Assembly (NCBI GenBank): GCA_049303795.1
Contig: JBAQNM010000008.1
Coordinates: forward strand, 18,288 to 82,287
DNA: 64,000 nt
Origin: Candidatus Moraniibacteriota bacterium
GTDB taxonomy: Bacteria > Patescibacteriota > Minisyncoccia > Moranbacterales > UBA2206
Reading direction: 5' to 3'
Positions 9,428 to 42,921 of the stretch are shown piece after piece (position 1 is the stretch's first letter; each line of letters opens with the position of its first letter). Below the pieces are notes generated by a model that was given only the letters and a program-made list of their open reading frames with translations, had not been told where the DNA came from and did not search any database. A program made the position numbers and the translations under genes.

Positions 9428-9500
9428 TTAAATGCAGTCTTAAATTTTATAAATTAATTATATATTTATCTTACTCTAAATTTAATAAATTTAAAACAGA

Positions 9501-9549
9501 AAACCCACCAACAGCACAGATGGGCTCTCTGTTTTCTATTGGTGGGTTT
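9501..9549 (-). terminator. Hairpin terminator downstream of gene 9553-9870; part of the left copy of the direct repeat
   Basis: aaacccaccaa ... ttggtgggttt, 11-bp stem immediately after the stop codon. Confidence 0.5.
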
Positions 9550-9552
9550 AAA

Positions 9553-9870
9553 TCATTTACGTTTGGTACTAAACTCAAAGGTGGCGTCGTATGTCTCATT
9601 AAATCCGGGGCTATCGTATTTAACTTTCCATCCTGCTGCACGATACGCCGCCTCAACATTAAGCCAGCCTTTTTCAGATATCTCTTTTTCATCCAGGCCC
9701 TTCTTTACCATCAAGACTACCACGTCTTTCTGCTTAATGGTAGCTGAGCCTCCGACAAACTTGCTTGAGATAAGCTCATTAAAGGCTTCAAATACAGCGG
9801 CGGGAAACTCTTGCTTCTTTATTGCTGCTACCTCACTGGGCTTAATAGGTCTAACTTTCTTCGTTGTCAT
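9553..9870 (-). CDS. Small hypothetical protein (105 aa); its 3' end is duplicated at about 20.09-20.16 kb
   Basis: ORF with C-terminus ...GFNETYDATFEFSTKRK; a diverged copy of the last ~20 codons and the terminator recurs at 20022-20144. Confidence 0.4.
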   Translation of the reverse strand: MTTKKVRPIKPSEVAAIKKQEFPAAVFEAFNELISSKFVGGSATIKQKDVVVLMVKKGLDEKEISEKGWLNVEAAYRAAGWKVKYDSPGFNETYDATFEFSTKRK

Positions 9871-9885
9871 AACACGCCTCCTTCC

Positions 9886-10281
9886 TTATTTTTTCATTCT
9901 TTTTTCAGATAGACCAAGCTTCTCAATAATTTTGGTCGCTGCCCGACCAGAATCGCCGATAATATCGGTCATTCGCGGATCGGTAGCAATCAATTTTTCA
10001 AGAGCGGTTTCGTCCTCAACGAAAAAGATTGAATCATGGAACGTGGTAAATCCGTTACCGAAATAAACTTTGTTTCCTTCCACGCGATTAACCTTCTTCT
10101 TCACAAACCCATACACTTTCCCTCTTGGATGAAGTGGGTCCTCATTAATCCAGATGGCATTTCCAGGTTTAAGGTTTCTGATTTCATCCTCGGTGGCCGG
10201 TCGATAATAATTACAAACAGCATAATTATCGTAACCGGTCCATTGATTGTAGGTCAAAACGACAGTGCCAAAGCCTATCAT
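9886..10281 (-). CDS. Hypothetical protein
   Basis: 131-aa ORF co-directional with neighbours; phage-like small-gene context. Confidence 0.35.
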   Translation of the reverse strand: MIGFGTVVLTYNQWTGYDNYAVCNYYRPATEDEIRNLKPGNAIWINEDPLHPRGKVYGFVKKKVNRVEGNKVYFGNGFTTFHDSIFFVEDETALEKLIATDPRMTDIIGDSGRAATKIIEKLGLSEKRMKK

Positions 10282-10300
10282 GTCAGCTTCCTTTCTTTCC

Positions 10301-10855
10301 TTAGGTTAGTTTTCTTCGATCAATTTTTTCAAAAGTTTCTAAATGCTTGAGAGCGACAAACCAAGCCTTCCCCACAAATAATTCATCTTGGTACCACCAC
10401 CCTAATTCTCCTTTCTTCCTTCTGAATACATAGCCTTTTTGCTTAAGCAATTTCCCAACAGTAACTTCATTTAATTCTCTCCAGGGTATTTCATTCCCCA
10501 TTCCGACCCAGTAAGCTAAACGAATTTTCTTTTTTAATGATTCGATAAAGTTTACCAATGGCGGGCAATCTTCCTGTCCTTTTTTATGCTTCTCAGAAGA
10601 ATTGGACAAATATTTTTTGTACTCCGAGTCAAGACTAGCGAGCAAATATAGAGCTTCTTCATATGCCGCATATTCTGCTTTTTCAGCCATTTCCATTCTC
10701 TTTTCGAGGTGTATCGCTTCTTTTTTAATAAGCAATCCGTCTTCATTACATTTGCTTATTATCATATCAAGCTGAGAAACAAGCATTCTCATGAATTTAT
10801 CCATAATAAAATCGTTATGGAGCTCTAATCCCAACACATTCTTTAGCTTTTTCAT
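10301..10855 (-). CDS. Hypothetical protein
   Basis: 184-aa ORF; no recognisable motif. Confidence 0.35.
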   Translation of the reverse strand: MKKLKNVLGLELHNDFIMDKFMRMLVSQLDMIISKCNEDGLLIKKEAIHLEKRMEMAEKAEYAAYEEALYLLASLDSEYKKYLSNSSEKHKKGQEDCPPLVNFIESLKKKIRLAYWVGMGNEIPWRELNEVTVGKLLKQKGYVFRRKKGELGWWYQDELFVGKAWFVALKHLETFEKIDRRKLT

Positions 10856-10993
10856 TGCTTTTTCTCCCCAATTATGTTTTTAAAAAACTATGACATTAAA
10901 AAATAGCACCCTATTTATTATTTGTCAAAATAAAAAGCGGGTATTGGCTATTAGCCTCACCGCTTAGGGGGAAAATCACATCACAACATCAGA

Positions 10994-11530
10994 CTAACAC
11001 CGATCAATCGCATGGGTGAAAGTTTTTTTCTTCTTGTTTTCCAGTTTCGGAACAACAAAAAATTCATCATCCTGCGCGTAGGTAATACCTTCAATCACGG
11101 GACGCTCGGCAAGCAAAGCTTGGCGATCAACCTCTTCGATGATTCGGATAAAATCATCATTGCCCGTTTCTTTGAGCAAGGCGATCACTTCTTCATCGGT
11201 CAGTTTTGTCTCAACACGCGGAGGAGTTAAACGCCAGCCAAAAATTCCGGAATTAAGCGCAATCGTCCGCAACTCTTTTGTCAATTGAGCTTTGCGGGGA
11301 TTGGCGAAAGCGAATAAGGAATTAATTTTGGCATCCCTCTCAACCACCAGCGGCCGTAGCTTCTTCGTAGCCGCCAATTTCAATTCGGCGATCCTCTCTT
11401 TCAATTCTTTTTCAATTGCATTGATCTTGTTCTGGCTATCACCTAATTGACCCAAAACAACATCAGCCTCTGTAATCGAATGCGGAACAACAGTTTTGGA
11501 CTTCTTAATACGAGTGATTGTCTTTACCAT
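10994..11530 (-). CDS. Bacteriophage Mu Gam-like host-nuclease inhibitor family protein
   Basis: Coiled-coil N-terminus followed by conserved region (KINAIEKELKERIAELKLAATKKLRPLVVERDAKINSLFAFANP) resembling Gam family; downstream hairpin terminator at about 10925-10960. Confidence 0.5.
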   Translation of the reverse strand: MVKTITRIKKSKTVVPHSITEADVVLGQLGDSQNKINAIEKELKERIAELKLAATKKLRPLVVERDAKINSLFAFANPRKAQLTKELRTIALNSGIFGWRLTPPRVETKLTDEEVIALLKETGNDDFIRIIEEVDRQALLAERPVIEGITYAQDDEFFVVPKLENKKKKTFTHAIDRC

Positions 11531-11686
11531 TTTTAAATCCTCCTAAGTAGATGTGTGATTTTTGTTTGCACCATATGTGCGGATATCAAAGTACTATTTG
11601 CACTTTAGCGCAACTATGCTATATTGATAATGTGTCGTCGACGCTCGACAAATAACTGCTAATTCGCTCATAAATCACATAAAATT

Positions 11687-12445
11687 ATGCAAAATATCAA
11701 AGGTATTCTCGCTAGTATCAATATTCCAATCTCAGCTCAAGAAATCTATATTGCACTTTTGGAAAATGGCAAAGCTACCGCACGCGTGCTCTCCCATCGC
11801 ACAGGCATCACACGCACATCAATCTATGATCAGATAAAAATTCTTCGCACCAAAGGATTGATTGTTGAACGCTCTATCGAAGGCACTACTATTTTTGAAA
11901 TTGGAGATGCTCGTCAATTGTCCATCCTACTTAACGAACAAGCAGAAAAATTACAAGAGCAACAAAACTTTTTGAAAAAAAATATCACTAATCTGATTAA
12001 TAAATCTCAATCACTACAGCCAAAAATCCGCTTTTTCGAAGGACAGGATGGAGTGAAGCAGTTGTTCAAAGACATTCTCTGGCACGATAACATCACGCTC
12101 TATTTATATTGGCCCTATGAGCAAATGCTTGAATATCTAGGAGAAGATTTCCTACTTTGGTTTAGCAGCAGAAGGAAGGCTCATAATATTCCCATTAAAA
12201 CTATCTGGGGTAATAAAAATGAAAAAATAAAAAAGCATATCTTTACTGATGACGATAAAGATGTGGAACGTCGCTATCTCATACAAAAAGATATTTCTTC
12301 GATGGGTTATATTATTTATGATAAAAAAGTGGCTTTCATAAGTTCATCCAAAGAATCTTTTGGATTTATAGTAGAAAGTATTGAATTTACTAATTTGCAA
12401 AAAATGCAGTTTGATATTTTGTGGAATACTGCTAAGAAAAAATAA
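11687..12445 (+). CDS. TrmB-family HTH transcriptional regulator
   Basis: N-terminal wHTH LENGKATARVLSHRTGITRTSIYDQIKILRTKGLIVE; paralogous to 37306, 57545 and 58352. Confidence 0.55.
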   Translation: MQNIKGILASINIPISAQEIYIALLENGKATARVLSHRTGITRTSIYDQIKILRTKGLIVERSIEGTTIFEIGDARQLSILLNEQAEKLQEQQNFLKKNITNLINKSQSLQPKIRFFEGQDGVKQLFKDILWHDNITLYLYWPYEQMLEYLGEDFLLWFSSRRKAHNIPIKTIWGNKNEKIKKHIFTDDDKDVERRYLIQKDISSMGYIIYDKKVAFISSSKESFGFIVESIEFTNLQKMQFDILWNTAKKK

Positions 12446-12584
12446 AAAGAAGAAAACTGCTCAGACACAGCTTTCTGTTAAGCGGTTATTTTTTAAATTT
12501 ACATCGGTCTTTTGACTAAATTACTATTGTCATATTCATCTTTCCCCATAAGTGCTATTATTAAAATAAATTAATTTACAGCAA

Positions 12585-14342
12585 ATGAATAAAGCGGTTT
12601 ATAAATTCATATTTCGTACCTATGGACATAGCTTCAACCAATGGATTGGTTTTTTTGCCGAAATTTTTCGCGTATCTGTCATGCGAGTATACATAGCAAT
12701 TGCAATAGCTCAGGTCACTTCTAATGTTGCTTCAGGAAATTTTGACGCCGCAAAAAAACATACACTCTATTTCTTTTTCGCATATTTGACAGCGGCCTTG
12801 GTCGGAACATTTGGCGAATGGCTATCCGTACGAACAGAAAGCAGACAATATGCAAAATTATCAGCAGCCTTCTATCAAAAATTAGCAGGTAAAGATCTCT
12901 CCTTTTATCGGGACAACCAGACGGGTTATTTGACAAGTATTTTTAGACAACACCTAGATGCATCAATGCTCCTACTTCGCTTTTTTCGTGGCGAAGCATT
13001 GGGAGCGTTTATCACGCTCACCGTTCCGCCAATTGTTTTGTTTTTTGTATCTCCCCAAATTGGACTAATTGCGATTGCGATTGTTTTTGTTCAATTTATT
13101 TATGTTTTATGGTCATCCTCAAAAGTAGGCAAATATCGCGAAATTTCTCATGAAATGTATCGTAAAACAACTGGGGAAGTTTCCGATATAATAACCAATA
13201 TTGTCGCTTTCAAATCAGGTGGCGTGGAAGATAAGGCCAGATGTCAAATGACTGAATTGGCAAAACAAGAAGCAAAAGCATTTGATGCTCGACGTAAATT
13301 ATCCGCGCTATTAGATCTGCCAAGAAATATAATAACAGCCTGCGGAATCACAATAGCTGTTTATCTTATTGTATCTAACTCTTCCAGTGCCAATCCTCAA
13401 TCTCTTGGTCTGATTGTCTTGACGTTAACATACATGTTTCAGATAATTCGTAGCGTTGACATATTGCCCTTGCTAATCACAACTCATGATGATCTAGTTA
13501 CCAAGCTTTATCCCACCCTAACTTATCTAGATAAAAAATATGAAACAATATCCGATCCAGCCAAGCCCGTAAATTTATCAATCACAAAAGGAGCAATTAA
13601 TATTAATAAAATTAATTTCAGCTATCCATCACATTCAAATAAAAATAAAAAAATACCTGTTTTTAAAAATCTTACAATGAATATTAAAGGTGGTGAACAG
13701 ATTGGCATTGTAGGATTAAGTGGCGCTGGAAAAAGCACACTAGCAAGTTTAATCCTTAGATTCGACGAGATAGACGGTGGCTCAATTAAAATTGATGGCA
13801 TCGACATCCGCGATGTGAAACAAAGCGAACTGCGCCAAAAGATAGCCTATGTTCCTCAAGAGCCCTTGCTTTTTCACAGAAGTATCAAAGAAAATATCGC
13901 TTATTATAACTGCGACACAAGCGACGAAGATATTATCTTGGCTGCCAAAGCGGCTCATGCACATGAGTTTATAGAAAAACTACCCGATGGCTATGACACG
14001 ATCGTCGGTGAAAGAGGAGTCAAATTAAGTGGTGGACAAAAGCAAAGAGTGGCAATCGCTCGCGCCATTCTCAAAAAAGCACCTATTATGATTTTTGATG
14101 AAGCGACTAGTGCGCTCGATAGTGAAAGCGAACAAATCATACAACGAGCACTACCCGAAATTATTGGAAAACAGACAGCCATAGTTGTAGCACATCGGCT
14201 AAGTACTATCGCAGGACTTGATCGTATAATTGTTATGCATGAAGGCAAAATCGTTGAATCGGGAAAGCATGAAGAATTATTGACTTTGGGCGGTCGTTAT
14301 TGTTCTTTATGGAAAAAACAAACTTCAGAATTTGTTGTTTAA
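12585..14342 (+). CDS. ABC transporter, fused permease/ATP-binding protein (exporter type)
   Basis: Six N-terminal TM helices; Walker A GLSGAGKST; signature LSGGQKQR; Walker B IMIFDEATSALD. Confidence 0.85.
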   Translation: MNKAVYKFIFRTYGHSFNQWIGFFAEIFRVSVMRVYIAIAIAQVTSNVASGNFDAAKKHTLYFFFAYLTAALVGTFGEWLSVRTESRQYAKLSAAFYQKLAGKDLSFYRDNQTGYLTSIFRQHLDASMLLLRFFRGEALGAFITLTVPPIVLFFVSPQIGLIAIAIVFVQFIYVLWSSSKVGKYREISHEMYRKTTGEVSDIITNIVAFKSGGVEDKARCQMTELAKQEAKAFDARRKLSALLDLPRNIITACGITIAVYLIVSNSSSANPQSLGLIVLTLTYMFQIIRSVDILPLLITTHDDLVTKLYPTLTYLDKKYETISDPAKPVNLSITKGAININKINFSYPSHSNKNKKIPVFKNLTMNIKGGEQIGIVGLSGAGKSTLASLILRFDEIDGGSIKIDGIDIRDVKQSELRQKIAYVPQEPLLFHRSIKENIAYYNCDTSDEDIILAAKAAHAHEFIEKLPDGYDTIVGERGVKLSGGQKQRVAIARAILKKAPIMIFDEATSALDSESEQIIQRALPEIIGKQTAIVVAHRLSTIAGLDRIIVMHEGKIVESGKHEELLTLGGRYCSLWKKQTSEFVV

Positions 14343-14547
14343 TTTTTCATTCAAGCAACTTCGTTTGACTTAGTCTGCAAAAAACACCTCCTCAATTGTG
14401 CTTTCCAGCGCCTTTGCAATTTCAAAAACTAATTTTAAAGAAAGATTATATTTATTGGACAATTATTTTTTTCATTTTTTTAAATTTAACGATTAACTAT
14501 TTTAATTATACAACAAAACATAAAACTGCACATCAGGCATTTTCTGA

Positions 14548-15147
14548 CTAAAACGACCCTGTTTTCACTTCACCTGCGCGCTCATAATTGGCAAAAATGA
14601 CTCCGCTTGGAGAAACCTTACTATTCGTTAGTTTGAATGCCGCGGGAATAGTGCCTTTGGCAAACAAGCGCTTTCCTTGTCCTAGTGTTACAGGAAATAT
14701 TTTAAGCCAAAACTCATCGACCAAGTCATGCTTCATAAGCGTCTGGACAAGAATGCCACTGCCATAGACATACAAATTCGGTCCACTTTCTTGCTTGAGT
14801 TTTTTTATTTCTTGGAAAGCATCATCACCTTTTAGAAAAATCGAATTTTTCCAACTATGTTTTTCAAGCGTATTTGAAACAACATACTTTTTCACATCAT
14901 TAACACCAGGCCACCCGGCTTCGTGCTCTGGCCAGTATGAAGCAAATATTTCAAAAGTTTTTCTTCCCAAAAGCAATTCAAATGGCTGTGACATCTGCTC
15001 GCTCATAACCTTGCCCGAAAAATCGTCAAAATAAGGCACCGTCCAACCGCCAAATTTGAAACCACCAGAAGTATCTTCCTTTTGTCCGCCGGGCGCTTGA
15101 ATTATCCCGTCGAGTGTAATGAATTCTAATACAATTATTTTTCTCAT
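14548..15147 (-). CDS. Dihydrofolate reductase family protein (RibD C-terminal domain-like)
   Basis: MRKIIVLEFITLDGIIQAPGG opening typical of the YwjB/RibD_C DHFR-like family. Confidence 0.6.
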   Translation of the reverse strand: MRKIIVLEFITLDGIIQAPGGQKEDTSGGFKFGGWTVPYFDDFSGKVMSEQMSQPFELLLGRKTFEIFASYWPEHEAGWPGVNDVKKYVVSNTLEKHSWKNSIFLKGDDAFQEIKKLKQESGPNLYVYGSGILVQTLMKHDLVDEFWLKIFPVTLGQGKRLFAKGTIPAAFKLTNSKVSPSGVIFANYERAGEVKTGSF

Positions 15148-15180
15148 ATGATTATTATCTCAAAAAAATAATTAGAATAC

Positions 15181-15672
15181 TTATTCCTGTTCATAGGCCG
15201 TCTTCAAGTCAGCGATAATAATCTTCTTCATCTTGAGCATCGCTTTCATAACCCTTCCTGCTTTTTGTTGGTCCGGATCTGCCAACATTTCTTCAAGAAT
15301 TAACGGCGTGACCTGCCAGGATAATCCATATTTATCCTTGAGCCATCCGCAAATTTGGGATTTTTTGTCTCCGCCTTCAGTTAGCTTGTTCCAATAATAA
15401 TCAACCTCATTCTGGTCTTTGCACTCGATGATAAAAGAAACGGCCTCTGTGAATTTGAATGGAGGGCCGCCGTTTATGGCGGTAAATTTCTGACCTTCCA
15501 TCTCAAACTCAATTGTCATTATTTCCCCAGCTTTCTTTCCGGAAACTTCTTCCGCTTCTTTCAGATATCGCGTAATTTTTCCAATCTTTGAATTTTTAAA
15601 AATAGAAACATAAAAATTGACTGCCTCTTCGGCTTCGTGGTCATACCACAAAAATGGAGTTATTTTTTGCAT
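15181..15672 (-). CDS. VOC-superfamily protein (PhnB-like)
   Basis: MQKITPFLWYDHEAEEAVNFYVSIFKNSKI matches the PhnB/3-demethylubiquinone-9 methyltransferase-like glyoxalase-fold family. Confidence 0.55.
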   Translation of the reverse strand: MQKITPFLWYDHEAEEAVNFYVSIFKNSKIGKITRYLKEAEEVSGKKAGEIMTIEFEMEGQKFTAINGGPPFKFTEAVSFIIECKDQNEVDYYWNKLTEGGDKKSQICGWLKDKYGLSWQVTPLILEEMLADPDQQKAGRVMKAMLKMKKIIIADLKTAYEQE

Positions 15673-15725
15673 ATATTTGATCTTAAATAAATTAAACTAC
15701 GCTTTGCTTTTTACCTAGGCATTGA

Positions 15726-16118
15726 TCATTTAGCTTTCCAATCAGTTGCCTGCATCAGAGCGAAGCGATTACCTTCAGGATCTTTCACGCTCGCAAACCA
15801 ACCCACACCAGGCAACTCTGATTTTTCCCTCGTGATAGTTCCGCCATTGGCCTTTACCGCTGCCACCGCCGAATCAATATCCGGCACATCGATTGTGCAA
15901 TCAAAAGTATAGAGCTTGTCATCAGCTGGACGCTTATACATCCCGCCATCGATACCGGGAGTTCCTTTTTCCCCGGTCATCACCATCCAATAGTCCATCA
16001 TGCCACTATTTTTTTCATCCATATACTTCTCAATCTTCCAACCTAAAACATTCTCGTAAAATTTTTTGGCACGCTCTACATCATCAGCTTGAATTTCAAA
16101 ATGTATTACTCTGTTCAT
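15726..16118 (-). CDS. VOC family protein (glyoxalase/bleomycin-resistance fold)
   Basis: MNRVIHFEIQADDVERAKKFYENVLGWKIEKY, typical VOC opening. Confidence 0.6.
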   Translation of the reverse strand: MNRVIHFEIQADDVERAKKFYENVLGWKIEKYMDEKNSGMMDYWMVMTGEKGTPGIDGGMYKRPADDKLYTFDCTIDVPDIDSAVAAVKANGGTITREKSELPGVGWFASVKDPEGNRFALMQATDWKAK

Positions 16119-16378
16119 ATTTTTTCACCTTATTAATCCCGCCAGGCGGGACTTTCGTTTGATACGAAATTTTTAATAAGATATGTTAATAATTAGTCTG
16201 CTTGTATTTAAATTAAATAATTTGCATACACATAAAAAAACAAAAAACAACCACCTCAGGCGGTTGTCCTAAAAAACTGCCAGACAAATTAATCTTTCTT
16301 GAAGATAATTCCCCTGACCTCTTGCATACAGAAAAAAGTCAAACTATTACACACCGCCTAAGCACTTCTTTTATTACG

Positions 16379-16615
16379 CTATTTGGTAGATTTATATTTC
16401 AAAAGACGAAAAAGTCCTTTGGATGGTTTATAGACCTCGTTAGGAAATTTTTCTACAAGCTTCCAGACACATCCATTGATCGTTTTGGGATGAAAGTTAG
16501 CATTAGATGTTTTAATTTCTGAGATCAATTCTGACCAATGCAAACCCTCCGGATGCTGCCTAAGCAACTCCAGTGCCATCGCATTTATAGCTCCTGTAAT
16601 TGTGGACTTGGTCAT
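16379..16615 (-). CDS. Small winged-helix-like protein
   Basis: 78-aa ORF; putative wHTH; weak evidence. Confidence 0.3.
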   Translation of the reverse strand: MTKSTITGAINAMALELLRQHPEGLHWSELISEIKTSNANFHPKTINGCVWKLVEKFPNEVYKPSKGLFRLLKYKSTK

Positions 16616-16665
16616 ATTTCTAAGCTTTTTAATACCTCAATTAGAAAATATTCAAACTTTGTAAA

Positions 16666-17472
16666 TCATTTATTTTTAAACCTTGTCATAATAACAACTT
16701 CTTTTTCATGAATATAGCCATTCTTGTCTTGTCTTTTGATAAAAAAATTTCTTGCACTTTCCTTAATTTCGGATGAAATATCATACAAATGCCTCATCCC
16801 TATCCATTCTAAAATCAAATTACCATTCTTATTAAGCTTTTTGTTCTTTGCGACAACACCAGAGAATATAGTGTCAAATTTTTTAATTTTACATTCATAC
16901 CCTCCAAGCCCGTCTAGTAGTGAATCGACTTCATTTCTGGATGAAGCATATTGATTGTCGGTTATTTTTTTGAGTCCGCCTAAAAAAGAATTTGTGTCGT
17001 TTACTATAAAAACCACCAAGCCATCATCGCTAAGCATCTTTTTGATTTTATCCAAATATGCATTGTTTCTGAAAGTATAAATACTATGAATCAAAAAGAT
17101 TATGTCATATTTACTTTTAGTGGAAAATTTCTCGAAGGTGCTCTTTTCTACATTAATAGGATATTTCTTTTTGGACGATTCCTTCACGCAACTTTTTACA
17201 AATTCCTCAGACGGCTCCAATAGATTGGCTCGAGTAGCAATCTTCCTTTGTTTAAATAAAGCGAGCAGATGCCTGAGTCGTTTCCCGTCACCACCACCGA
17301 TGTCTAAGATTTCAAGTTCTTTTTTATTTTTAATTTTTGGATAAATAATATCAAAAAGATTAGAAATCAATGAATCTTTCTTTCCGTAGAGTATGTTTTT
17401 GAATTCATTATATTTCAACGCTCCTTCTTTTGAATTCAAATAATTTAAATATTGGGCTTTAACATCTTTCAT
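16666..17472 (-). CDS. Class I SAM-dependent methyltransferase
   Basis: Motif I ILDIGGGDGKRL and acidic post-I motif. Confidence 0.55.
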   Translation of the reverse strand: MKDVKAQYLNYLNSKEGALKYNEFKNILYGKKDSLISNLFDIIYPKIKNKKELEILDIGGGDGKRLRHLLALFKQRKIATRANLLEPSEEFVKSCVKESSKKKYPINVEKSTFEKFSTKSKYDIIFLIHSIYTFRNNAYLDKIKKMLSDDGLVVFIVNDTNSFLGGLKKITDNQYASSRNEVDSLLDGLGGYECKIKKFDTIFSGVVAKNKKLNKNGNLILEWIGMRHLYDISSEIKESARNFFIKRQDKNGYIHEKEVVIMTRFKNK

Positions 17473-17719
17473 AAATAAATTCTATTAGTTTATTCTATTT
17501 TTGTCTAATGTTTGTATGGGCCGAGCTAATTCATAACGCAAAAAAGTGATGTCTGGCTCTTTTTCTATTTCTTCCAAGCCTTAGCTAGATAAATAAAGAG
17601 AATTAATATTAATAACAATCAACAAAATGCTTCAAACAAATTTTTGGAGCATTTTTTATTGGCGCCCACTAACTGCCGGATTAATTATATTTATAAAAAA
17701 TAAATTTTTCATAAAATTA

Positions 17720-17752
17720 ACAAAGACCGCAGGGTGATGCCGTACGGTCTTT
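17720..17752 (-). terminator. Hairpin terminator
   Basis: aaagaccgcagggtgatgccgtacggtcttt downstream of gene 17796-18710. Confidence 0.45.
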
Positions 17753-17795
17753 ATAAATTTGAGATTCTATTTTTAAATCTTAAAAAATACGCTTT

Positions 17796-18710
17796 CTAGT
17801 TTAGAATGAATTCGATGAATACTGGCAAGTGGTCGCTGATTTTTCTGGCGACAGACAAATCGGAAAATGATGGGACAAAATCTAGGATGCCAACTTGGCA
17901 AATGGTAATATTACCACGAACAAAAATATTATCGTATTCTCTCATGTAATAATTACCGTCTTTCAATTTGCTTTTTAAGGAAGTTTTCCCTTCGATTTGG
18001 TGCCTAAAATTCAACTGATTCTCAAAGACTGAATTTAACTTCTCGTGGCCTAAATTAAAGTCTCCTACAATAATTGCATTATTCGCAGGAAAAACATCTG
18101 GGTTATGGCCAAGCGCAATCACCTCATTCAATGGATTTTTTTTCGTGGGAACCAAATGAAAACTCATCAAGCTGAAAGATTTGTCGTTAACTTTAAAAAA
18201 CATCTTGGCCGGCTCTCTTTCCAAACTATCTTCCAAGGAGTTGATTAAATTTGCTGACCTTGGTAAGGCATTAATACGTCTTGTTTTCCAAAGAAAGCCA
18301 AAACGCTCTCTCCCTTTGCTTTTGTGGGTCGAATTACTTATCACATAATCCCACTTGTTTCCTTTTCGATTCAGATCATCAGCCAAACGAGCCACTGCTT
18401 GAGCGCCAAAATCAGAAGTGCTAACTTCTTGAATGGCAATCAGATCAGCTTCTCGAAACATCTCAGCTATAAACTCCAGTTCTTCGGCTGACTTTGACTT
18501 GCCAAAATTTCCGCCGTTAAAAGAAACTAAAACCAAACTATTCCTTGCACCATTCAACCTTATTATTTTTGTAACATATGGAGATTTAGCTTGGTTGGTC
18601 TGGGTTGCGGCAGTGGTTAAAACTTTGGAGTTTTTTTCAGTGGTTTCTTTTTGGCAGCCAGTCCCAAAAAGTAGTGCAAGAATCAATAAGAATATCGATA
18701 TTTTTTTCAA
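17796..18710 (-). CDS. Endonuclease/exonuclease/phosphatase (EEP) family lipoprotein
   Basis: Signal peptide plus lipobox LLFGTGC; EEP-like conserved Asp/His-containing blocks (GDFNLGHEK, SDHLPV). Confidence 0.55.
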   Translation of the reverse strand: MKKISIFLLILALLFGTGCQKETTEKNSKVLTTAATQTNQAKSPYVTKIIRLNGARNSLVLVSFNGGNFGKSKSAEELEFIAEMFREADLIAIQEVSTSDFGAQAVARLADDLNRKGNKWDYVISNSTHKSKGRERFGFLWKTRRINALPRSANLINSLEDSLEREPAKMFFKVNDKSFSLMSFHLVPTKKNPLNEVIALGHNPDVFPANNAIIVGDFNLGHEKLNSVFENQLNFRHQIEGKTSLKSKLKDGNYYMREYDNIFVRGNITICQVGILDFVPSFSDLSVARKISDHLPVFIEFILN

Positions 18711-18873
18711 TTTTTTTCTCCTTCTCTTTTTTAGTTATCAATGAGCATTCAAATTTAACAATCCAACATAGTATATTAATTAATTAAAGTCAAGAAGAGA
18801 GAAATAAAAAAGCTACGCCATTATTTAGATAATAGGTAGCTCTTTTCTGTTGTTGGGTTAAAAATTCAAAAAA

Positions 18874-19596
18874 TTATTTTTTCTTTCCTGAACGCCGCTT
18901 TGCTTCTTCGATTGCCGCTTTGGCTGAAGATTCAACTGCATCAACAGCGATGACGGCTTTTCGAAGGATAACCAGGATGGCCGGCGGGACATTTTTTTTC
19001 AAAATCCAATGGTCAACTTCGGATATATTAATACCCGAATCTCTGCGTGAATAACTGGCCAGTTCCTGGGAACGTCTTAAGAACAGATCCTCAATCATTT
19101 TTTCTTGCGCCGGTAGCATATGGACATGAAACCGAGAAGCCCTGTGTGCTTGAATAAGTATATCAAATGCAAGTCCAGATTCTTCAGTAATCTTGTATTC
19201 CCAGTGCCGCAGAACTTCTTTTAAAATTGCCGCTTTTGTTTTTTGCAAAACTGGGTGCAGTTGTGAAGCAGGTCCTGGCCCCTCAGCAAATAGATACAGC
19301 TTTTGATAAATTTTTTTCAGATAATGCAGTAACTCGGCATTTATTCGCTTTTCTTCTTTTTTCTCTGTAATTATCATTTCACGATAAGTCCTGACAATCT
19401 TGGGGATGAGCCATTCACCCATGAAGTCATTTTCCAAGCGATGATCATGGGCCTGCGTTGCCAGCTCAAAAACTTTTTCCAGGTGATGTAGTTTTTCTTT
19501 TGAGCTGGATATTCTTGGATTGAAAAGGTAGCCCATAATTACACCAGCCGGGTTTTCTTCGAATTCTTTTTTGTCTCTGTCATAACGATCGTACAT
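18874..19596 (-). CDS. Hypothetical protein
   Basis: 240-aa ORF. Confidence 0.35.
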   Translation of the reverse strand: MYDRYDRDKKEFEENPAGVIMGYLFNPRISSSKEKLHHLEKVFELATQAHDHRLENDFMGEWLIPKIVRTYREMIITEKKEEKRINAELLHYLKKIYQKLYLFAEGPGPASQLHPVLQKTKAAILKEVLRHWEYKITEESGLAFDILIQAHRASRFHVHMLPAQEKMIEDLFLRRSQELASYSRRDSGINISEVDHWILKKNVPPAILVILRKAVIAVDAVESSAKAAIEEAKRRSGKKK

Positions 19597-20414
19597 GGTT
19601 TTTCCTCCTTACAGTTTAACTGCGATTTCTTCTTGCGCGTACGCAAAAAGTCCAAATCACTGTTCGTAAACAGCGTTCAGAAAGTTTATTAAAATTTTTA
19701 AAAAACACACTTTCTAAATATAAATGGAAGAAAGCTTTCCATCATAGCATATTATTATTATAAAGTCAAGAAAATGTACAGTTAACACCTATTAACTATT
19801 AACCAATGAATATGCCAAAGGGAAGAGAAATTACCCCTTTATAAAAGGAGAAAATCGAAGTATATTTAATAAATTCAAGCCTATAAATTTGCCCAAAGAT
19901 AAAAAAGAACTAGAGCTTTTATACTCTAATTATCCAGTTCTGCTCTCAATAGCTGATATATTCAGAAGTTTAAATCTTAATAAATTTGAATTGGATATGC
20001 AATTGCTAAATTTCACAGTATAAAAACAGAAGACCCACCATTGACACAGATGAGTTCTCTGTTGGTGGGTTGCTAAATCATTTATCGCTTATTTAATGAT
20101 GCGAATAAACTCGAAGGTGGCATCATACGTCTCATTAAATCCAGGCTTTGGCTCGGCAAGTGGCATAAATAATGGTTGTATAGAAAATAGAAACGCAAGA
20201 CCCATCCGCCTAATTTCTTGACTACTTGCTTAGTAGAAAAGGCGGTCACTACCAAGGCAATCGCCATAACCCAAAAACAAGTAACGATAAATAATAAATG
20301 AATGCTTGTCATAACTTGATTTGCTATATCATAAATTTAAGTATTATTTAAAGTAGATTGAAGAATTATTGCAATAATGAGTTTTATGAATTTAGGCGAA
20401 ATTACATCAAATAA

Positions 20415-21599
20415 TCACTTTTCTTGAAATTGAACCCTCACTATCCTAATTAGCGGGTAAATCCCAATGATAAGGAAAGCGGTAACTGAAATTTCCATTA
20501 AGATCATCATTGAAAATCTATCCAGTATTATTCCACCAGTAAGCATAAAGACTGTCGCTCCCATACGTATAAGTAGGCTATTTAATGAAAGGACGCTTGA
20601 ACGCACTGACTTTGTGATGACTGAATTCATATCAACCATAAGCTTTGTTTCAAAATATCCACGCATTAGATGAGCAATGAACATGCCAGCGAGAGCGATA
20701 ATTGGCATATTTGTAATTCCAATAGATAAAATAGAAACCAATAAAATAAGTGTTACAATAATAATATTCAGCTTTGAAAACTTTTCATAAAATTTTACAC
20801 CAGCAGCTACGAGTAACGTAGCTACACCCGCCAATACTCCCCAAGAAACAATATTTAATCCTAATGTTAGAAATAATGGATTATACAGCCATTTAAAACT
20901 AAAGAAGAAAGTGCCTATTAAAGCAGAAACGATCATTATATTCAAAAGTTGCTTATTGGTCATTGAATATTTTAAACCTTCTATGCCAACTCCTAATAAA
21001 TTATTATCTTCAGTTTTTTCTCGCACCCTGATTTTAGTCGTAATAACCATGAAAGACGCACCCACTAAAAAAATTGCCGTGAGATATAATGGGATTCTTA
21101 AATCAATTGCAGAAACAAAACCTCCAATTGAAACTGCCAAAAATGTCACCACTACTCCATAGAACTTAACTTGTGAATAATCTTTTTTAAAATCACTGGA
21201 TACTGCGTGTAAAAGCGCGTTATCGCTCCCTGAAACAAGCGAGCCCCCAAGAGCTAATAAAAACAATGTTGCTCCATAAAATAAAATGCCACCCGAAAAT
21301 GAAAGTAGGACATATGATAAGGCTAGAATTATATAACCAAAAAATACAGATATTCTATGAGAATAATAATCGCCAATGACTCCGGTTGGATATTCTAAAA
21401 GTACGCTCATTACATAATAAAAACCTATGAGCTGAAAAACATAAGTTGTAGAAATATCTCTACTAGTCAAATATAAAACCATCGTTGCAACCCAAAAACG
21501 CGCAGAAAAAAATATTTTAGCTAGTTTTACTTTTGTTAAATCATTCATATAAAAAAATAATACCACACAAAACAAGCGTAGAGAAATTTTCTTATTCAA
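20415..21599 (-). CDS. Polytopic membrane transporter (MFS-like, about 12 TM)
   Basis: 394 aa, repeated hydrophobic helices; family inferred only from topology. Confidence 0.45.
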   Translation of the reverse strand: MNKKISLRLFCVVLFFYMNDLTKVKLAKIFFSARFWVATMVLYLTSRDISTTYVFQLIGFYYVMSVLLEYPTGVIGDYYSHRISVFFGYIILALSYVLLSFSGGILFYGATLFLLALGGSLVSGSDNALLHAVSSDFKKDYSQVKFYGVVVTFLAVSIGGFVSAIDLRIPLYLTAIFLVGASFMVITTKIRVREKTEDNNLLGVGIEGLKYSMTNKQLLNIMIVSALIGTFFFSFKWLYNPLFLTLGLNIVSWGVLAGVATLLVAAGVKFYEKFSKLNIIIVTLILLVSILSIGITNMPIIALAGMFIAHLMRGYFETKLMVDMNSVITKSVRSSVLSLNSLLIRMGATVFMLTGGIILDRFSMMILMEISVTAFLIIGIYPLIRIVRVQFQEK

Positions 21600-22015: not shown

Positions 22016-22061
22016 TTGACAATATTTTTGCCACATGATATTATGTTCCCATAATGGGAAC
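22016..22061 (+). promoter_or_regulatory. Sigma70-type promoter (TTGACA-17-TATTAT) followed by a 17-bp palindromic operator overlapping the higB start codon
   Basis: ttgaca 22016-22021; tattat 22039-22044; gttcccataatgggaac 22045-22061 is a perfect inverted repeat containing ATG 22054. Confidence 0.6.
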
Positions 22062-22359
22062 AATTACACAGTCAATAATAATGAATATCCTCGGTAAAGA
22101 AAAATTACATGCTTTCAAGCAAAGGCACGCTGATGTCCGTTCACAGGTAGATGCCTGGGAGGCTGAAGTGGCTATAGCAAAGTGGTGTACGCCACAAGAC
22201 ATAAAACAGCGATATGCCAGCGCCAGTTTTTTGGCAGATAACATAGTAATATTTAACTTGAAAGGGGTAAGGTATAGATTAAAAACAAAGGTTAATTATC
22301 CATATGAAGCAGTACTAATAATGAACGCTGGAACACATAATGAATATACGCGTTGGTAA
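22054..22359 (+). CDS. higB: Type II toxin HigB-family (RelE/ParE superfamily) mRNA interferase
   Basis: C-terminal KGVRYRLKTKVNYPYEAVLIMNAGTHNEY resembles the HigB core (…IAFIDFRFKKIFVKHIVTHAEYDK); 7-nt overlap with the downstream HTH gene. Confidence 0.65.
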   Translation: MGTITQSIIMNILGKEKLHAFKQRHADVRSQVDAWEAEVAIAKWCTPQDIKQRYASASFLADNIVIFNLKGVRYRLKTKVNYPYEAVLIMNAGTHNEYTRW

Positions 22360-23582
22360 TAACAAGCAAAACTATGACAACTAAAATTAAGGTTATCAAA
22401 ACTGAAGAGGATTACCAAGGGGCTCTCAAGATGGTTGAAGAGCTAATGGACAAAAATCCCGACACCAATTCAGAAGACGGCGAAAAGCTGAGTCTTCTAA
22501 TAACATTGGTTAAGGATTACGAGTCTAAATCTATCCCTGAATCTTTACCTGATCCAATTGATGCGATCCTATTCAGGATGGAACAGCAGAATCTAAAACC
22601 ATCAGATTTAGTACCTTATATTGGAAGCAGAAGCAAAGTTTCTGAAATCCTTTCTCGCAAACGCCCACTAACCCTTTCAATGATAAGATCTCTTGAGGCT
22701 AACTTAGGTATTCCAGCTAAAGTCCTTCTGAAAGAATCAGATGAATTTAGAAATGCCGAGGATATTACATGGAATAGGTTTCCATTAAATGAAATGAAGA
22801 AACGTGGATATTTCAATGATTTACCAAAAATAACAGATATAAAGGTACTGATGGAGAATTTTTTTCAACCCATTGGATCTCCCATGCAGCTTGCTGGAAT
22901 GCTTCGTAAAACAAATTACAGATCAACTAGGCCAATGGATAAGCATGCGCTGATTGCTTGGTCCGCAATGATTGTAAAAAAAGCCAACGAAATAAAATCA
23001 GTTAAAAAATTTCAAAAAGACACTGTCAACTTGGACTTTATGCAAAAGCTGGCGAAACTAAGTGCTGAGGAAAATGGTCCTCTTCTTTCTCGCGATTTTC
23101 TTGAGAAACATGGAATCATACTAATAATTGAGCCACATTTTCCACAAACTTATCTTGATGGTGCAGCATTAATGCTTCATGGAAAAAATCCCATTATAGG
23201 GTTAACTCTTAGATATGATCGCATTGATAATTTCTGGTTTAATTTAATGCATGAATTGGCACATATAGCGCTACATTACGATGATAATTCAAACTTTTTT
23301 TATGACGATTTAGAAAATTCAGATCTATCAAATACAAAAGAGAATGATGCAGACAAATTAGCATGCGAAGCCCTTGTTCCTGAAAACAAATGGATCAATA
23401 GTTCTGCAAGACTAATCTCCATGCCTATAGCCGCTGAAAGTTTAGCAAAAGAATTGGGAATACACATAGCCATTGTGGCTGGGAAAATGAGACGCGGGGG
23501 TGATAAATATATTTATTTAAATAACATAATCAATCAGGCTAAAATCAGGACATATTTCCCTGAAATATCCTGGAAAAAATAA
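22353..23582 (+). CDS. HigA-like XRE HTH antitoxin domain fused to ImmA/IrrE-family (DUF955) zinc metallopeptidase domain
   Basis: HTH region SDLVPYIGSRSKVSEILSRKRPLTLSMIRSLEANLGIPAKVLL; C-terminal HEXXH NLMHELAHIALHY. Confidence 0.65.
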   Translation: MVITSKTMTTKIKVIKTEEDYQGALKMVEELMDKNPDTNSEDGEKLSLLITLVKDYESKSIPESLPDPIDAILFRMEQQNLKPSDLVPYIGSRSKVSEILSRKRPLTLSMIRSLEANLGIPAKVLLKESDEFRNAEDITWNRFPLNEMKKRGYFNDLPKITDIKVLMENFFQPIGSPMQLAGMLRKTNYRSTRPMDKHALIAWSAMIVKKANEIKSVKKFQKDTVNLDFMQKLAKLSAEENGPLLSRDFLEKHGIILIIEPHFPQTYLDGAALMLHGKNPIIGLTLRYDRIDNFWFNLMHELAHIALHYDDNSNFFYDDLENSDLSNTKENDADKLACEALVPENKWINSSARLISMPIAAESLAKELGIHIAIVAGKMRRGGDKYIYLNNIINQAKIRTYFPEISWKK

Positions 23583-23583
23583 T

Positions 23584-24681
23584 ATGTCTGATTCAAAAAT
23601 TTACACACCCATATTAAGATGGAAGGCTGCTGAGAAAGAAGCTCTCCAAGAGCTAAAGGATGAAAATAAAAACTTCATTATTCCGCTATTGGAACTGCTG
23701 ATGCCTCAACCAAAAAAAGCGAAAAAGGGAGAAGCTCCAAAAGTGCAGAGTCCAGCTGAACTACTCATGGAATCAGTAGAAATTTTTGAGTCAACATCGA
23801 ATGAAATAGCACAAGATATCAAAAAACATTGGGGAAATAAACATTTCTTTTTAGATTTCAAATTATTGCATGCACCAATTATATTAGAGGGATTAAAAAA
23901 TGTACTAACTACGGGCGATAGCGCAGGCATCTCAACAATACCGGTAATGCATTTGAGTTACGATGCTGATATTAAAAATGGCATCATTTCACTAGTAAAA
24001 AAGCATAACGCTGAATTATGCTTGAGATTGTCACGATCTGATATAAGCGAAGATTCCATTGCAACTAAAATCAACGAGTTTCTGAAAAGCTATGATTTGA
24101 AAGAAGAAATCATACATTTAATAGTTGATCTAAAAATCACGGACGAAGATTATTCTACGCTTACTGGCAAGATTAACAGCATTCCTAATATAAATAAGTG
24201 GAAAACATTTGCTATAGCGAGTGGCGCTTTCCCTCCGGACTTAACACAATTCACTACGCCCGATTTATACCGAATACCTCGTACAGACTGGACAAACTGG
24301 GTAAATTTAATAAAAAATCTTACAAGGAAACCCTCCTTCGCAGATTATACAATTCAGCACCCTATTTATAAAGAACCGACTGGCAATGTAAACCCGAGTG
24401 CGAGCATAAGATACACAACCCATTCCGAGTGGATGATTATGCGAGGCAGAGGCTTGCGTTCACCAAAAAGTGGTGGATTTGCTCAGTATCCACCACAAGC
24501 GAAACTACTATCAGACCAGCCAGAATTTGCTGGTGCAGGTTTTTGTTTTGGCGATGATTATATCGAAGAAAAAGGTAAAGATATACATACGAAGAAAACT
24601 GGAACTCCAAGAACCTGGTTGCGAGCCGGAATTAATCGACACTTGGCATGCACTGTAGCTCAGATCGCCAGTTTAACCTAG
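23584..24681 (+). CDS. Uncharacterised protein, possibly Beta-protein (sce7725-like) family; third gene of the higB operon
   Basis: Starts 2 nt after the preceding stop; N-terminal YTPILRWKAAEKEALQEL resembles the Beta_protein family opening. Not verifiable without an HMM search. Confidence 0.4.
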   Translation: MSDSKIYTPILRWKAAEKEALQELKDENKNFIIPLLELLMPQPKKAKKGEAPKVQSPAELLMESVEIFESTSNEIAQDIKKHWGNKHFFLDFKLLHAPIILEGLKNVLTTGDSAGISTIPVMHLSYDADIKNGIISLVKKHNAELCLRLSRSDISEDSIATKINEFLKSYDLKEEIIHLIVDLKITDEDYSTLTGKINSIPNINKWKTFAIASGAFPPDLTQFTTPDLYRIPRTDWTNWVNLIKNLTRKPSFADYTIQHPIYKEPTGNVNPSASIRYTTHSEWMIMRGRGLRSPKSGGFAQYPPQAKLLSDQPEFAGAGFCFGDDYIEEKGKDIHTKKTGTPRTWLRAGINRHLACTVAQIASLT

Positions 24682-25303
24682 AGCGCAATTGCTCCCTGAC
24701 TATCTCTTTCAAGGTTTTTTTATCCAAAACTTCAGCTAGCCTCTCATATATAGCTTTTCTATTTTTTGAACGCATGCCTTTGTCCTGTCCAATTTTTTCT
24801 AAAATCCCCAGCGCCTCTTCTCTCCATAACAGTGCTGCGACAGCCGCGCTGTTTTGATTTTTATTTTGTTCAGCCTCTCTTATCTTGCAAAAAGAAACTG
24901 CGTTATTTGAATCTACAATTTTTGCAATTGTTATGCCCCACCAATCAGGAACTATTTTTATTGCTTCGTGCAAATGATTTTTACCCACCACTAATGTCAC
25001 TCTGTCGAGAACTGTATTGTATACTTCAATTTGACCAGGTAATCTCTTGAGGGTATCTTTGTCACTTTTTAATTCATAGCCATGAATAACACCGTTAACA
25101 ACGGCAATATCAATACGAGCCTCGCCATGAGTAAGTCCCAGTTCTTCAATTATCTTCGTATTTTTAAGACTTCCATAAGACTCTTCCAGTTTTTCTTTGA
25201 GCGCAGTTCGAATCATCCTATCATTCGTAAGAATAAAATGTTGACTATGTATTTTAGGCAACTGTTTTTTCATATTTTGTTTTTGTATTATTTCTTTTTT
25301 CAT
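24632..25303 (-). CDS. sce7726-like protein with PD-(D/E)xK nuclease-type motif
   Basis: GEARIDIAVVNGVIHGYELKSDKD carries D...E-x-K spacing typical of PD-(D/E)xK; 3' end overlaps the convergent gene by 50 nt. Confidence 0.4.
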   Translation of the reverse strand: MKKEIIQKQNMKKQLPKIHSQHFILTNDRMIRTALKEKLEESYGSLKNTKIIEELGLTHGEARIDIAVVNGVIHGYELKSDKDTLKRLPGQIEVYNTVLDRVTLVVGKNHLHEAIKIVPDWWGITIAKIVDSNNAVSFCKIREAEQNKNQNSAAVAALLWREEALGILEKIGQDKGMRSKNRKAIYERLAEVLDKKTLKEIVREQLRSRLNWRSELQCMPSVD

Positions 25304-25354
25304 TATAACAAATAAAATAAAAAAATGACACTAAAAATATCCTTGCTAATTGGT

Positions 25355-26275
25355 TTATTTTGTAATGAAATCCAATGCCCCTTTTTCAATCATATCGAGT
25401 GTAAGAAGATAATCATTATGATTAAAGGTTTCTCTCAATGGACGCTGTGTAGTTTTCCAACCATTGCCGTCAGTAATCCAAATAAATTTATACTTTCCAT
25501 CCAATACATCAAAGAGGTTCCTATATTCGCCAGCCGTAGATTTCAGCTTTGAACCACCGCCTCCATAAAAATTAGTCTCAAAAATAAATAGCTCTTTACC
25601 ATTTTTAACAACAAAATCATATCTCCGGGAGGACTTATCAACTGGCACATCAAAGCCCCATTGAGCTTTAATTTTTCCAGCAGTCGCTTCTTTGAGATAT
25701 TCAAAGCCATTTCTCTTACATAAATCACTGATGAAGAATTCGACTATATCTTCCATGTAATGCCCGCTCCTATTTTTTCGTCCATTACTATCAAGTCCAG
25801 CCTCAACGCCAATCATATAGTCGACAAGATTTTTTATTTTCTGAGATATAATCAAATCCTTCAATCCTGATTCCTTAACAAATTTAAGATATTTTTCCAC
25901 ATCTTCATCGGTCGGATTTTCCTTACTAAAATCATACTCCTCATAAACAAATTTTTTGTGCTTGTAATCAACAAGAATTTTGAAACTTGCACTATTGCCT
26001 CCATCCCTGACCACTAAGGCAGGAATGGCTTTTATGGCTTCGGGGTTTTGTTTGACTAGGAATCTAAACTCCTCATCAAAGTTTTCCTTGCCAACTAAAT
26101 AATTCAGGTTATTCAAAGCAAGCTCAATTTTCTTGGTATTTTCAAACACCTTGTCCCAATTCACAAAATATGACCACAGCAGAATACTTGGCTTAATGTT
26201 TTTAATAAGGCAATCAAACACTTCGTCATTACTATTGCAATTTAATGTGTTCCTGTAAAAATCTAGGTTTTTCAT
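25355..26275 (-). CDS. Type II restriction endonuclease, DpnII/MboI family (GATC specificity inferred)
   Basis: N-terminal LWSYFVNWDKVFENTKKIELALNNLNYLVG resembles the DpnII family start (…DFPKVY…ALN.MN.LIG); last gene of the methyltransferase operon. Confidence 0.55.
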   Translation of the reverse strand: MKNLDFYRNTLNCNSNDEVFDCLIKNIKPSILLWSYFVNWDKVFENTKKIELALNNLNYLVGKENFDEEFRFLVKQNPEAIKAIPALVVRDGGNSASFKILVDYKHKKFVYEEYDFSKENPTDEDVEKYLKFVKESGLKDLIISQKIKNLVDYMIGVEAGLDSNGRKNRSGHYMEDIVEFFISDLCKRNGFEYLKEATAGKIKAQWGFDVPVDKSSRRYDFVVKNGKELFIFETNFYGGGGSKLKSTAGEYRNLFDVLDGKYKFIWITDGNGWKTTQRPLRETFNHNDYLLTLDMIEKGALDFITK

Positions 26276-27090: not shown

Positions 27091-27104
27091 TTTTATAATT
27101 TATC

Positions 27105-27956: not shown

Positions 27957-27964
27957 GATTTTTA

Positions 27965-28189
27965 TTATTTAATTAGCTCCTCAAGGGGTTCCTTGAAGGC
28001 ATCGGCAATCTTTTTTATAGTACTAATTCTTGGATCCGGAGTCCGCCCACTCTCGATTTTTGCAATGGTGTGATAATCAAGCCCTGTTTCCCTAACCAAG
28101 TCACTCTTGGAAAGATGATTCTTTTTTTTGAGCCTTTTTACATTCTTTGCGATTTCAGAACATGCCTTATTTAGTGCTTCTTTTTTCAT
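27965..28189 (-). CDS. XRE-family HTH protein (putative controller of the RM operon)
   Basis: 74 aa, HTH LSKSDLVRETGLDYHTIAKIESGRT; first gene of the co-directional RM operon. Confidence 0.55.
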   Translation of the reverse strand: MKKEALNKACSEIAKNVKRLKKKNHLSKSDLVRETGLDYHTIAKIESGRTPDPRISTIKKIADAFKEPLEELIK

Positions 28190-31910: not shown

Positions 31911-32041
31911 TTAAGTTACTTAACTATTGCATCCATAAAAAAGCGCTTTAAAAGGCGCTTTTTTTCGCTTGTTTTAAGTAACTTGGCTATGTTTTTAAGC
32001 ATGGGTTTCGTGTTTCACTAAATACAGTAACACGAAATCAT

Positions 32042-32209
32042 ATGACTACATTTTCTAAAAAAGAAATAGAAGAATTAGTGAGATTGCATCGCGAGGAATT
32101 GGGATTAGATGTCTCCGAAGAAGAAGCTTGCCAATATGCTACACAGCTAGTGGAACTTTTTCGTGTTGCTTATCGGGACATTCCAGACACTAAATCACCG
32201 CCTTAAAAA
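32042..32209 (+). CDS. Small acidic protein (55 aa) upstream of the primase-like gene
   Basis: ATG 32042 to TAA 32207-32209; MTTFSKKEIEELVRLHREELGLDVSEEEACQYATQLVELFRVAYRDIPDTKSPP. Confidence 0.3.
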
Positions 32210-32210
32210 T

Positions 32211-34640: not shown

Positions 34641-34694
34641 CTATTATTCGTGTTTCGGGTATTGTGTTGTTACAAAACCCAAACAAAAAAAGAA

Positions 34695-36522: not shown

Positions 36523-36530
36523 GCGCAATG

Positions 36531-42909: not shown

Positions 42910-42921
42910 AGGAGAATCACC

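Follow-up and report, generated by a model that had tools for sequence, protein, structure and literature searches.

Prophages and genomic islands that integrate into the 3' end of a protein-coding gene carry a substitute 3' end, as e14 and phage 21 do in the icd gene of Escherichia coli, and integration of this kind gives a characteristic order: the 5' part of the gene, the substitute 3' end, the island and, downstream of these, the displaced 3' remnant. Other elements, which encode large serine recombinases, split genes, as skin does in sigK and SPbeta in spsM of Bacillus, and as A118 does in comK of Listeria. Gene 3' ends can also be left behind by displacement: among effector and immunity genes of the type VI secretion system (T6SS) of Vibrio cholerae, homology-facilitated illegitimate recombination is reported to leave orphan 3' fragments (PMC5361080). 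The subject here is a 64-kb stretch (termed here the window) of the chromosome of a Candidatus Moraniibacteriota bacterium, a member of the Candidate Phyla Radiation (CPR), in which the 3' end of a small gene, termed p105, occurs twice together with a transcription terminator, the two copies bracketing some 10.5 kb of accessory DNA. An original prediction, made from the sequence itself, had read this duplicated 3' end as the scar of site-specific integration into the gene.

The reading favored here, at a confidence of roughly 0.6, takes the right copy for a pseudogene relic, consisting of the last 14 codons, the tail and the native terminator of a second p105 homologue that was decapitated by deletion or rearrangement. 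This second homologue would have been either a paralogue or a copy acquired from a related organism; it would have been functional during most of its divergence from the left copy, after which a deletion or rearrangement with its breakpoint between codons 86 and 87 would have taken off its head, the setting being what appears to be a rearrangement-prone accessory stretch of the chromosome. From this perspective the feature is most likely ordinary in kind: a gene relic with its terminator, arising from genome rearrangement, in an unusual organism. The elements involved are as follows.

9553-9870, minus strand: intact p105 gene, 105 amino acids (aa), from its open reading frame (ORF) and translation; the last in the run Gam, p184, p131, p105
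9476-9612, minus strand: left repeat unit, comprising p105 codons 87-100, the tail STKRK with its stop, the terminator hairpin and about 20 nt past the hairpin
9496-9549, minus strand: left intrinsic-terminator hairpin, with a 14-bp outer stem and an inner 5-bp stem, then a U-run (-26.7 kcal/mol, z -4.65)
20006-20148, minus strand: right repeat unit, comprising the relic codons, a diverged tail, the terminator hairpin and about 20 nt past the hairpin
20089-20148, minus strand: coding relic, KPGFNETYDATFEF-IRIIK-stop, from translations and the family alignment
20026-20072, minus strand: right terminator hairpin (-19.3 kcal/mol, z -1.9), weakened by a 7-nt deletion; a U-run still follows
19597-20414, no strand: stretch of 818 bp without a called gene, from the stop of an MFS gene to the start of p240, holding the right repeat unit and sigma-70-like sites upstream of p240

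The repeat is real and lies close to where it had been placed (9493-9610 and 20022-20144). A self-repeat scan finds two blocks at 78% identity, 9476-9533 with 20006-20063 and 9555-9609 with 20091-20145, whose registers are offset by 6 nt and which gapped local alignment merges into a single pair of direct repeats, 9476-9612 and 20006-20148, present in exactly two copies across the window. Pairwise blastn of 9476-9609 against 20006-20145 gives 71% identity over 147 columns (gaps counted) with an E-value of 5e-17; depending on the measure, identity is imperfect, at 71-83%. Part by part, the 14 codons agree at 35 of 42 positions, the hairpins at 39 of 47 plus a single 7-nt indel, and the 20 nt past the hairpin at 14 of 20; a faint similarity extends out to about 9436 and 19966, with a score that some 0.8% of composition-matched window segments reach and that is marginally above chance. 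The last 20 or so codons of the gene had been assigned to both copies: the duplication of the gene's 3' end stands, the count does not, as the conserved part comprises 14 codons (K or S at 87 to F100) followed by five-codon tails that have diverged. The longest exact stretch common to both copies is 14 nt (GTCTCATTAAATCC); it sits in the most protein-constrained codons, and its length would in principle suit a crossover core. The flanks hold no further homology, either between p198 and p240 or between 7.0-9.7 kb and 17.5-20.25 kb. Nor is the arrangement an assembly artefact, because several independent assemblies agree and one Logan contig covers both copies: every contig of this organism matches the window at 99.95% identity or more and shows the same arrangement (24 unmatched bases at the start of contig L004 are taken here, from their appearance, to be sequencing adapter rather than a variant junction).

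As had been predicted, both copies fold into a terminator hairpin. Each hairpin is followed by a U-run, and both are predicted intrinsic (Rho-independent) terminators by the usual features, namely a stable G+C-containing stem, the U-run and a position downstream of a stop codon. Most p105 orthologues carry a species-specific terminator hairpin of their own after the gene. The similarity in hairpin and flank, in contrast to this, is restricted to the present pair, both among 133 p105 loci and within the window, and therefore the two copies are each other's closest relatives, each with its own terminator. In the 64 kb, exact matches to a 29-nt coding pattern and to a 15-nt hairpin pattern occur solely at the two repeat sites; allowing up to 3 mismatches adds no match to the coding pattern (0 expected), and relaxing the hairpin pattern adds three sites, each with 2-3 mismatches. 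These results rule out a common terminator motif, which the original prediction had itself named as the observation that would overturn it: there are two copies in the window, and the hairpin is found at no other p105 locus. They bear equally on the idea that the copies share no specific ancestry and resemble each other through constraint on the protein's C-terminus combined with two similar terminators. The coding part taken alone does fit that idea, being 74-81% identical (over 40-60 nt) to orthologues from other CPR classes, which is comparable to the left-right similarity; but a hairpin and flank unique to the pair, and the E-value of the joint alignment, make it scarcely credible.

That the right copy once belonged to a p105-type gene is evident from its translation. 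On the minus strand it reads ...MPLAEPKPGFNETYDATFEFIRIIK*, with the stop codon at 20089-20091, or more fully ...AEPKPGFNETYDATFEFIRIIK-stop, which confirms the earlier description of it as a decapitated 3' remnant with terminator. Across the p105 family PGFNETYDATFEF is the conserved C-terminus and PGYNETYDATFEF is kept throughout; E92, F98 and F100 are invariant in the family alignment, and several distant members have the exact NETYDATFEF. Homology ends sharply between codons 86 and 87 (window 20148/20149), and upstream of codon 87 no p105 homology is left and the frame carries a stop. At position 87 itself the right copy has K, which is the family consensus, and the left copy has S; therefore the right copy was not copied from the left gene. 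The 13 shared codons hold five nucleotide differences, all of them silent and at third positions (synonymous divergence, pS, 0.65; nonsynonymous divergence, dN, 0), the chance that five randomly placed changes would all be silent being 1e-4 to 2e-3. Because all five are synonymous, both copies appear to have diverged under selection at the protein level; and silent-only changes together with K87 indicate separately evolving functional genes for most of the divergence, rather than a decayed duplicate.

The latter point bears upon a further alternative: an in-place segmental (tandem) duplication of a p105-containing block, followed by deletions, that would make the present order a circular permutation of an ancestral A-p105-B. 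Such a duplication would leave the order relic, B genes, A genes, intact p105, and the order seen here (relic and terminator, p240 through RibD_C, the ABC exporter, TrmB, Gam, p184, p131, p105 and terminator) is formally a permutation of this kind; likewise, in another Moraniibacteriota species (L014) p105 has an EEP gene downstream in the same orientation and a TrmB-like one upstream. Duplicated copies start out identical, however, and a decapitated relic should mutate irrespective of codon position, yet five of five changes are silent, the synonymous sites are near saturation and it is the right copy that has the consensus K87, with S87 in the left. Inasmuch as at least three events would also be needed, tandem duplication is decidedly improbable.

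The form of the right copy is in keeping with the favored reading, that is, with the relic of a second homologue. Similarity breaks off abruptly at the gene-internal end and fades in the intergenic DNA downstream, and a sharp boundary within the gene combined with a fading one beyond it is the shape of a truncated gene. Decay is visible in the 7-nt hairpin deletion, in the absence of a gene call (in none of the contigs' gene lists is a gene called within the 818 bp between the MFS gene and p240) and in a net 11-nt indel, which lies between FEF and a recognizable left-type stop context (AAATCATTTA) and shifts that context out of frame by a hand count. The right copy thus unites the properties by which pseudogenes are recognized, namely partial homology to a family with a sharp breakpoint, past coding selection and lost coding capacity; and, as in ordinary pseudogene relics, there is no start codon context, there are indels, and another relic lies nearby. 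Nothing essential sets it apart from such relics, the sole oddity being a terminator kept well enough that its function may persist. By a reading of the folds, no strong hairpin comes between the MFS gene (20415-21599) and the right hairpin, which probably now ends MFS-derived transcripts. Other marks of rearrangement nearby are a headless XRE relic at 14370-14460 and a defence island at 22-28 kb. Independently, p105 has also been decapitated in a Kaiserbacteria genome (L063:4500-4577, JACPGH010000002.1), where the relic covers residues 78-103 and reads ...AGWKVAYDKPGYNESYDAFFRFSQK*; truncation of p105 therefore happens elsewhere as well.

Three further ideas concerning the right copy were rejected. 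An apparent extension of the relic's homology further upstream (to 20307 by tblastn, P0015) is spurious, being of low similarity with gaps and a stop. P0015 was also considered as the donor lineage: its KPGFNETYDATFEF is identical, but its contig is 60% G+C and its DNA is no closer to the relic. (That contig, L146, is densely packed with small genes and has a phage-like look.) Truncation of the MFS gene by the same deletion is unsupported, as the 394-aa product has about 12 hydrophobic segments on inspection of a hydropathy scan. At the Kaiserbacteria locus, a motif of partly palindromic appearance, ACTTGAGWATATAAGG, occurs in three copies (at 4149, 4476 and 4651, within L063:4100-4700), which flank a small ArsR-like helix-turn-helix (HTH) gene and the relic there; none occurs elsewhere in that 14.5-kb locus.

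The family to which both copies belong is an uncharacterised chromosomal one that is widespread in Patescibacteria. The intact p105 matches a hypothetical protein from a Candidatus Moraniibacteriota metagenome-assembled genome (MAG) at 100% identity and has 26 further homologues, the next best being 69% identical; in species-representative genomes the family has 59 loci, almost all labelled Patescibacteria. On CPR chromosomes its neighbors are housekeeping genes, such as those for Obg, a pseudouridine synthase, a phosphoribosyltransferase and a NUDIX hydrolase. Family members are also present on 68 contigs classed as viral by IMG/VR. On some of these the p105 domain forms the C-terminus of a bigger ORF (333 aa, L072:7290-8291), and L085:7891-8324 and L086:7983-8628 are listed among those with larger-ORF or doubled p105 ends; on others a second p105-like C-terminus abuts the first, which suggests tandem paralogues. 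An AlphaFold2 model of p105 has a mean predicted local distance difference test score of 79, and its matches in a fold search are weak and winged-helix-like (E at least 0.09); a PDB sequence search with p105 gave no match.

In this window p105 is preceded by the Mu Gam-like gene, p184 and p131, which accompany it at no other locus examined. The three small genes p105, p131 and p184 had been called phage-like, a label that does not hold: none matches PHROGs, Pfam, NCBIfam or PADLOC, so that neither a phage nor a defence role finds support in these collections, and Gam is the only phage-like gene among those bracketed. Moreover, p131 and p184 have no relatives in IMG/VR, and p131 has no homologue besides itself among 5.8 billion proteins.

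A more regular companion of p105 is a TrmB-like gene, which partners it in 12 of the 59 species loci and in two closer relatives (adjacent in L071, with two genes between in L069). This partner, of about 245 aa, is 45-87% identical across the loci compared (L014, L044, L010, L071, L069 and nine others) and lies upstream on the opposite strand, head-to-head with p105 at a distance of about 100 bp in most loci and up to about 1.1 kb in a few. The arrangement points to a conserved regulator-target pair. The conserved partner is absent beside both p105 copies of the window, and among the best 120 matches listed for it there is no protein from this MAG. The deletion proposed for the right copy may also have taken this partner; loss of the partner in that same deletion would make the right copy the original locus.

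Against this background the integration scar can be assessed. Direct repeats do stand at both ends of the segment, as in a scar. Like icd-type integrations, moreover, the locus has two diverged versions of a gene's 3' end as direct repeats, which differ mostly by silent changes and one of which is headless. But in icd-type integrations the remnant lies downstream at the element's far end, with the integrase beside one attachment site, whereas here the 5' part of the intact gene (9613-9870) lies inside the bracket, the remnant is upstream in the gene's direction and there is no integrase. In p105's direction the order is MFS gene, remnant and terminator, p240 through to Gam, p184, p131, intact p105 and terminator, and then p198. 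With the 5' part enclosed by the bracket, a crossover between the two repeats would strip the chromosomal gene of its head; and because p105 is intact in the window, there is no disrupted target to look for. A Pfam search of the bracketed ORFs detects no recombinase, in agreement with the original prediction on this point, and the nearest one is a large serine recombinase (34650-36311), 14.5 kb past the right copy, whose neighboring DNA shows no similarity, direct or inverted, to the right-copy junction. None of 133 other p105 loci has a second copy of the 3' end plus terminator within 8-10 kb, in a search that detected the window as a positive control. A DNA pattern scan of JGI metagenomes for an empty site or alternative junction gave 0 matches; exact-protein look-ups for the MFS protein and p240 returned only the same arrangement, and for p198 no record. 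Taken together, the wrong polarity, the absence of an internal recombinase, of a compositional signal and of recurrence mean that the scar mechanism is not supported: polarity contradicts it, and it is without supporting evidence. Neither copy is likely to be an attachment site, and no observation marks the intervening 10.5 kb as a mobile unit.

A version that retains the attachment site has the p105 3' end and terminator serve as a true site for an integrase-less island of about 10.5 kb, carrying its own p105 and moved in trans (for example, by the serine recombinase at 34650-36311), with the wrong polarity arising from later loss of the chromosomal 5' part. This is highly improbable; if true, it would count as an early case of a satellite-like mobile element among Patescibacteria. 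Nor was p105 split by a serine-recombinase element. As with skin, SPbeta and A118, a truncated gene end adjoins accessory DNA and the window encodes a large serine recombinase, but those elements leave both halves of the target, one at each end, and here no 5' half of p105 occurs elsewhere in the 64 kb (tblastn with 24 family members, E up to 100) and the junctions are unrelated.

A further possibility concerns the bracketed DNA itself, which is as follows.

9613-20005, no strand: bracketed 10.4-kb segment, with its contents by Pfam
14370-14460, minus strand: headless C-terminal fragment of an XRE-type HTH protein, ...LSLKLVFEIAKALESTIEEVFFAD*, by translation, with stop codons just upstream, between the ABC exporter and RibD_C (presumably XRE-type, from what is recognized as a typical C-terminal pattern)

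The segment holds the 5' part of p105, p131, p184, the Mu Gam-like gene, a TrmB-like gene, an ABC exporter, the XRE relic, RibD_C, two VOC-type proteins, p78, an S-adenosylmethionine methyltransferase, an EEP nuclease/phosphatase, and p240 with its promoter region. As the original prediction had it, these genes look accessory: they include orphan genes, detoxification-type enzymes, an exporter and a second gene relic. The G+C content and tetranucleotide profile of 9.6-20 kb match the surroundings and are among the most typical in the window (r 0.97-0.98).

In the one geometry that suits an island, and as the main alternative to the relic, such a segment could derive from a circular element of about 10.5 kb, with a complete p105 of its own, that recombined with a chromosomal p105 somewhere in its 3' end or terminator, whether through Campbell-type homologous exchange or with the help of a recombinase supplied in trans. 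Two full p105 copies would at first have flanked the element, and a later deletion next to the MFS gene would have removed the chromosomal 5' part and perhaps the TrmB-like partner too. Direct repeats that bracket accessory and orphan genes, including one that is Mu Gam-like, are what this route would give; synonymous-only divergence suits an element-borne homologue of the target, the similarity continues 20-60 nt beyond the terminator at both copies, p105-family genes occur on the 68 viral-classed contigs, and a large serine recombinase lies 14.5 kb away. Yet an extra deletion is needed to mend the polarity; the block has no integrase, replication, transfer or virion gene; its composition cannot be distinguished from that of its flanks; there is no long exact core (the longest being 14 nt); 0 of 133 other p105 loci have such a bracket; the right-copy junction is unrelated to the recombinase-proximal DNA; and the genes flanking the bracket on the outside are just as accessory. 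On balance this origin is rather unlikely.

Several observations count against the relic of a second homologue as well. No close relative or empty-site genome was found, the next p105 homologue being 69% identical, and therefore the order of events has to be inferred. A genome with two copies of p105 is a rarity: among the 59 species loci, all other genomes with the gene are single-copy, and therefore the two-copy state calls for a special event. The selection argument rests on a tiny sample of 13 codons and five changes, and an insertion, too, would leave direct repeats that exactly bracket an accessory block. Lastly, the hairpin (39 of 47) is somewhat better conserved than the synonymous sites (about 3 of 8 unchanged), which could mean constraint or gene conversion, and not plain decay of a relic.

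Among described cases, gene displacement in the Vibrio cholerae T6SS shares with the proposed relic an incoming homologue that leaves a truncated older copy behind. In that model displaced fragments are said to accumulate directly downstream of the active gene. Here the relic lies 10.5 kb upstream with unrelated genes intervening.

More generally, a duplicated gene 3' end is by itself insufficient to call an integration scar; an attachment-site scar and the relic of a second homologue can be told apart by the polarity of the remnant and by the pattern of silent and replacement changes. If the relic is what it appears to be, even small CPR genomes can carry a gene that is normally single-copy in two copies for a short time before a deletion removes one of them, an episode placed here in a region that gathers accessory and defence genes. 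The analysis also flags p105 as a widespread and uncharacterised small Patescibacteria protein that, judging from weak fold matches to its model, may be winged-helix-like; its head-to-head pairing with the TrmB-like gene may merit more study than the repeat.

Some other features of the window are recorded here in their own right. Within the bracketed segment, a 35-nt motif occurs in two copies, 80% identical, at 18762-18796 (upstream of the EEP gene) and 19738-19772 (upstream of p240); its minus strand has TTGACT separated by 17 nt from TATGAT or TATGTT, and the EEP gene and p240 probably share a promoter design.

Just beyond the MFS gene, at 22054-28189, this CPR genome has a defence island, which includes a PD-Lambda-2-like trio, consisting of a HigB-like protein (101 aa), an M78 peptidase (409 aa, PADLOC E 6e-149) and a Beta protein (365 aa); a gene of the sce7726/cll family (24632-25303); and, at 25355-28189, a DpnII restriction-modification system, with its endonuclease, two DNA methyltransferases and a small HTH gene.

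Further on, 31068-36602 is a candidate small integrative element, with a CHC2 zinc-finger primase-like gene (32163-32777), two orphans (32774-34640) and the large serine recombinase (553 aa, 34650-36311), whose gene stops about 220 nt short of the 3' end of a tRNA-Asn (36530-36602, minus strand). The sequence TAGGTTCGAACCTC stands twice, without any mismatch, between the recombinase gene and the tRNA-Asn (36366 and 36458), and a search for a repeated tRNA-Asn 3' end found none. A polypyrimidine tract of about 230 nt (36990-37225), nearly all C and T on the plus strand, lies between the tRNA-Asn and a TrmB-like gene that seems actually to start at about 37307; the genome as a whole has about 35% G+C. 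Finally, 41755-46004, which encodes an S-adenosylmethionine synthetase, a Cys/Met pyridoxal phosphate-dependent enzyme and a methionyl-tRNA synthetase, stands out by a G+C content of 0.44-0.49, well above the usual value of about 0.35, and by an unusual tetranucleotide profile (r 0.75), a composition that could reflect horizontal transfer or an expression-linked bias.

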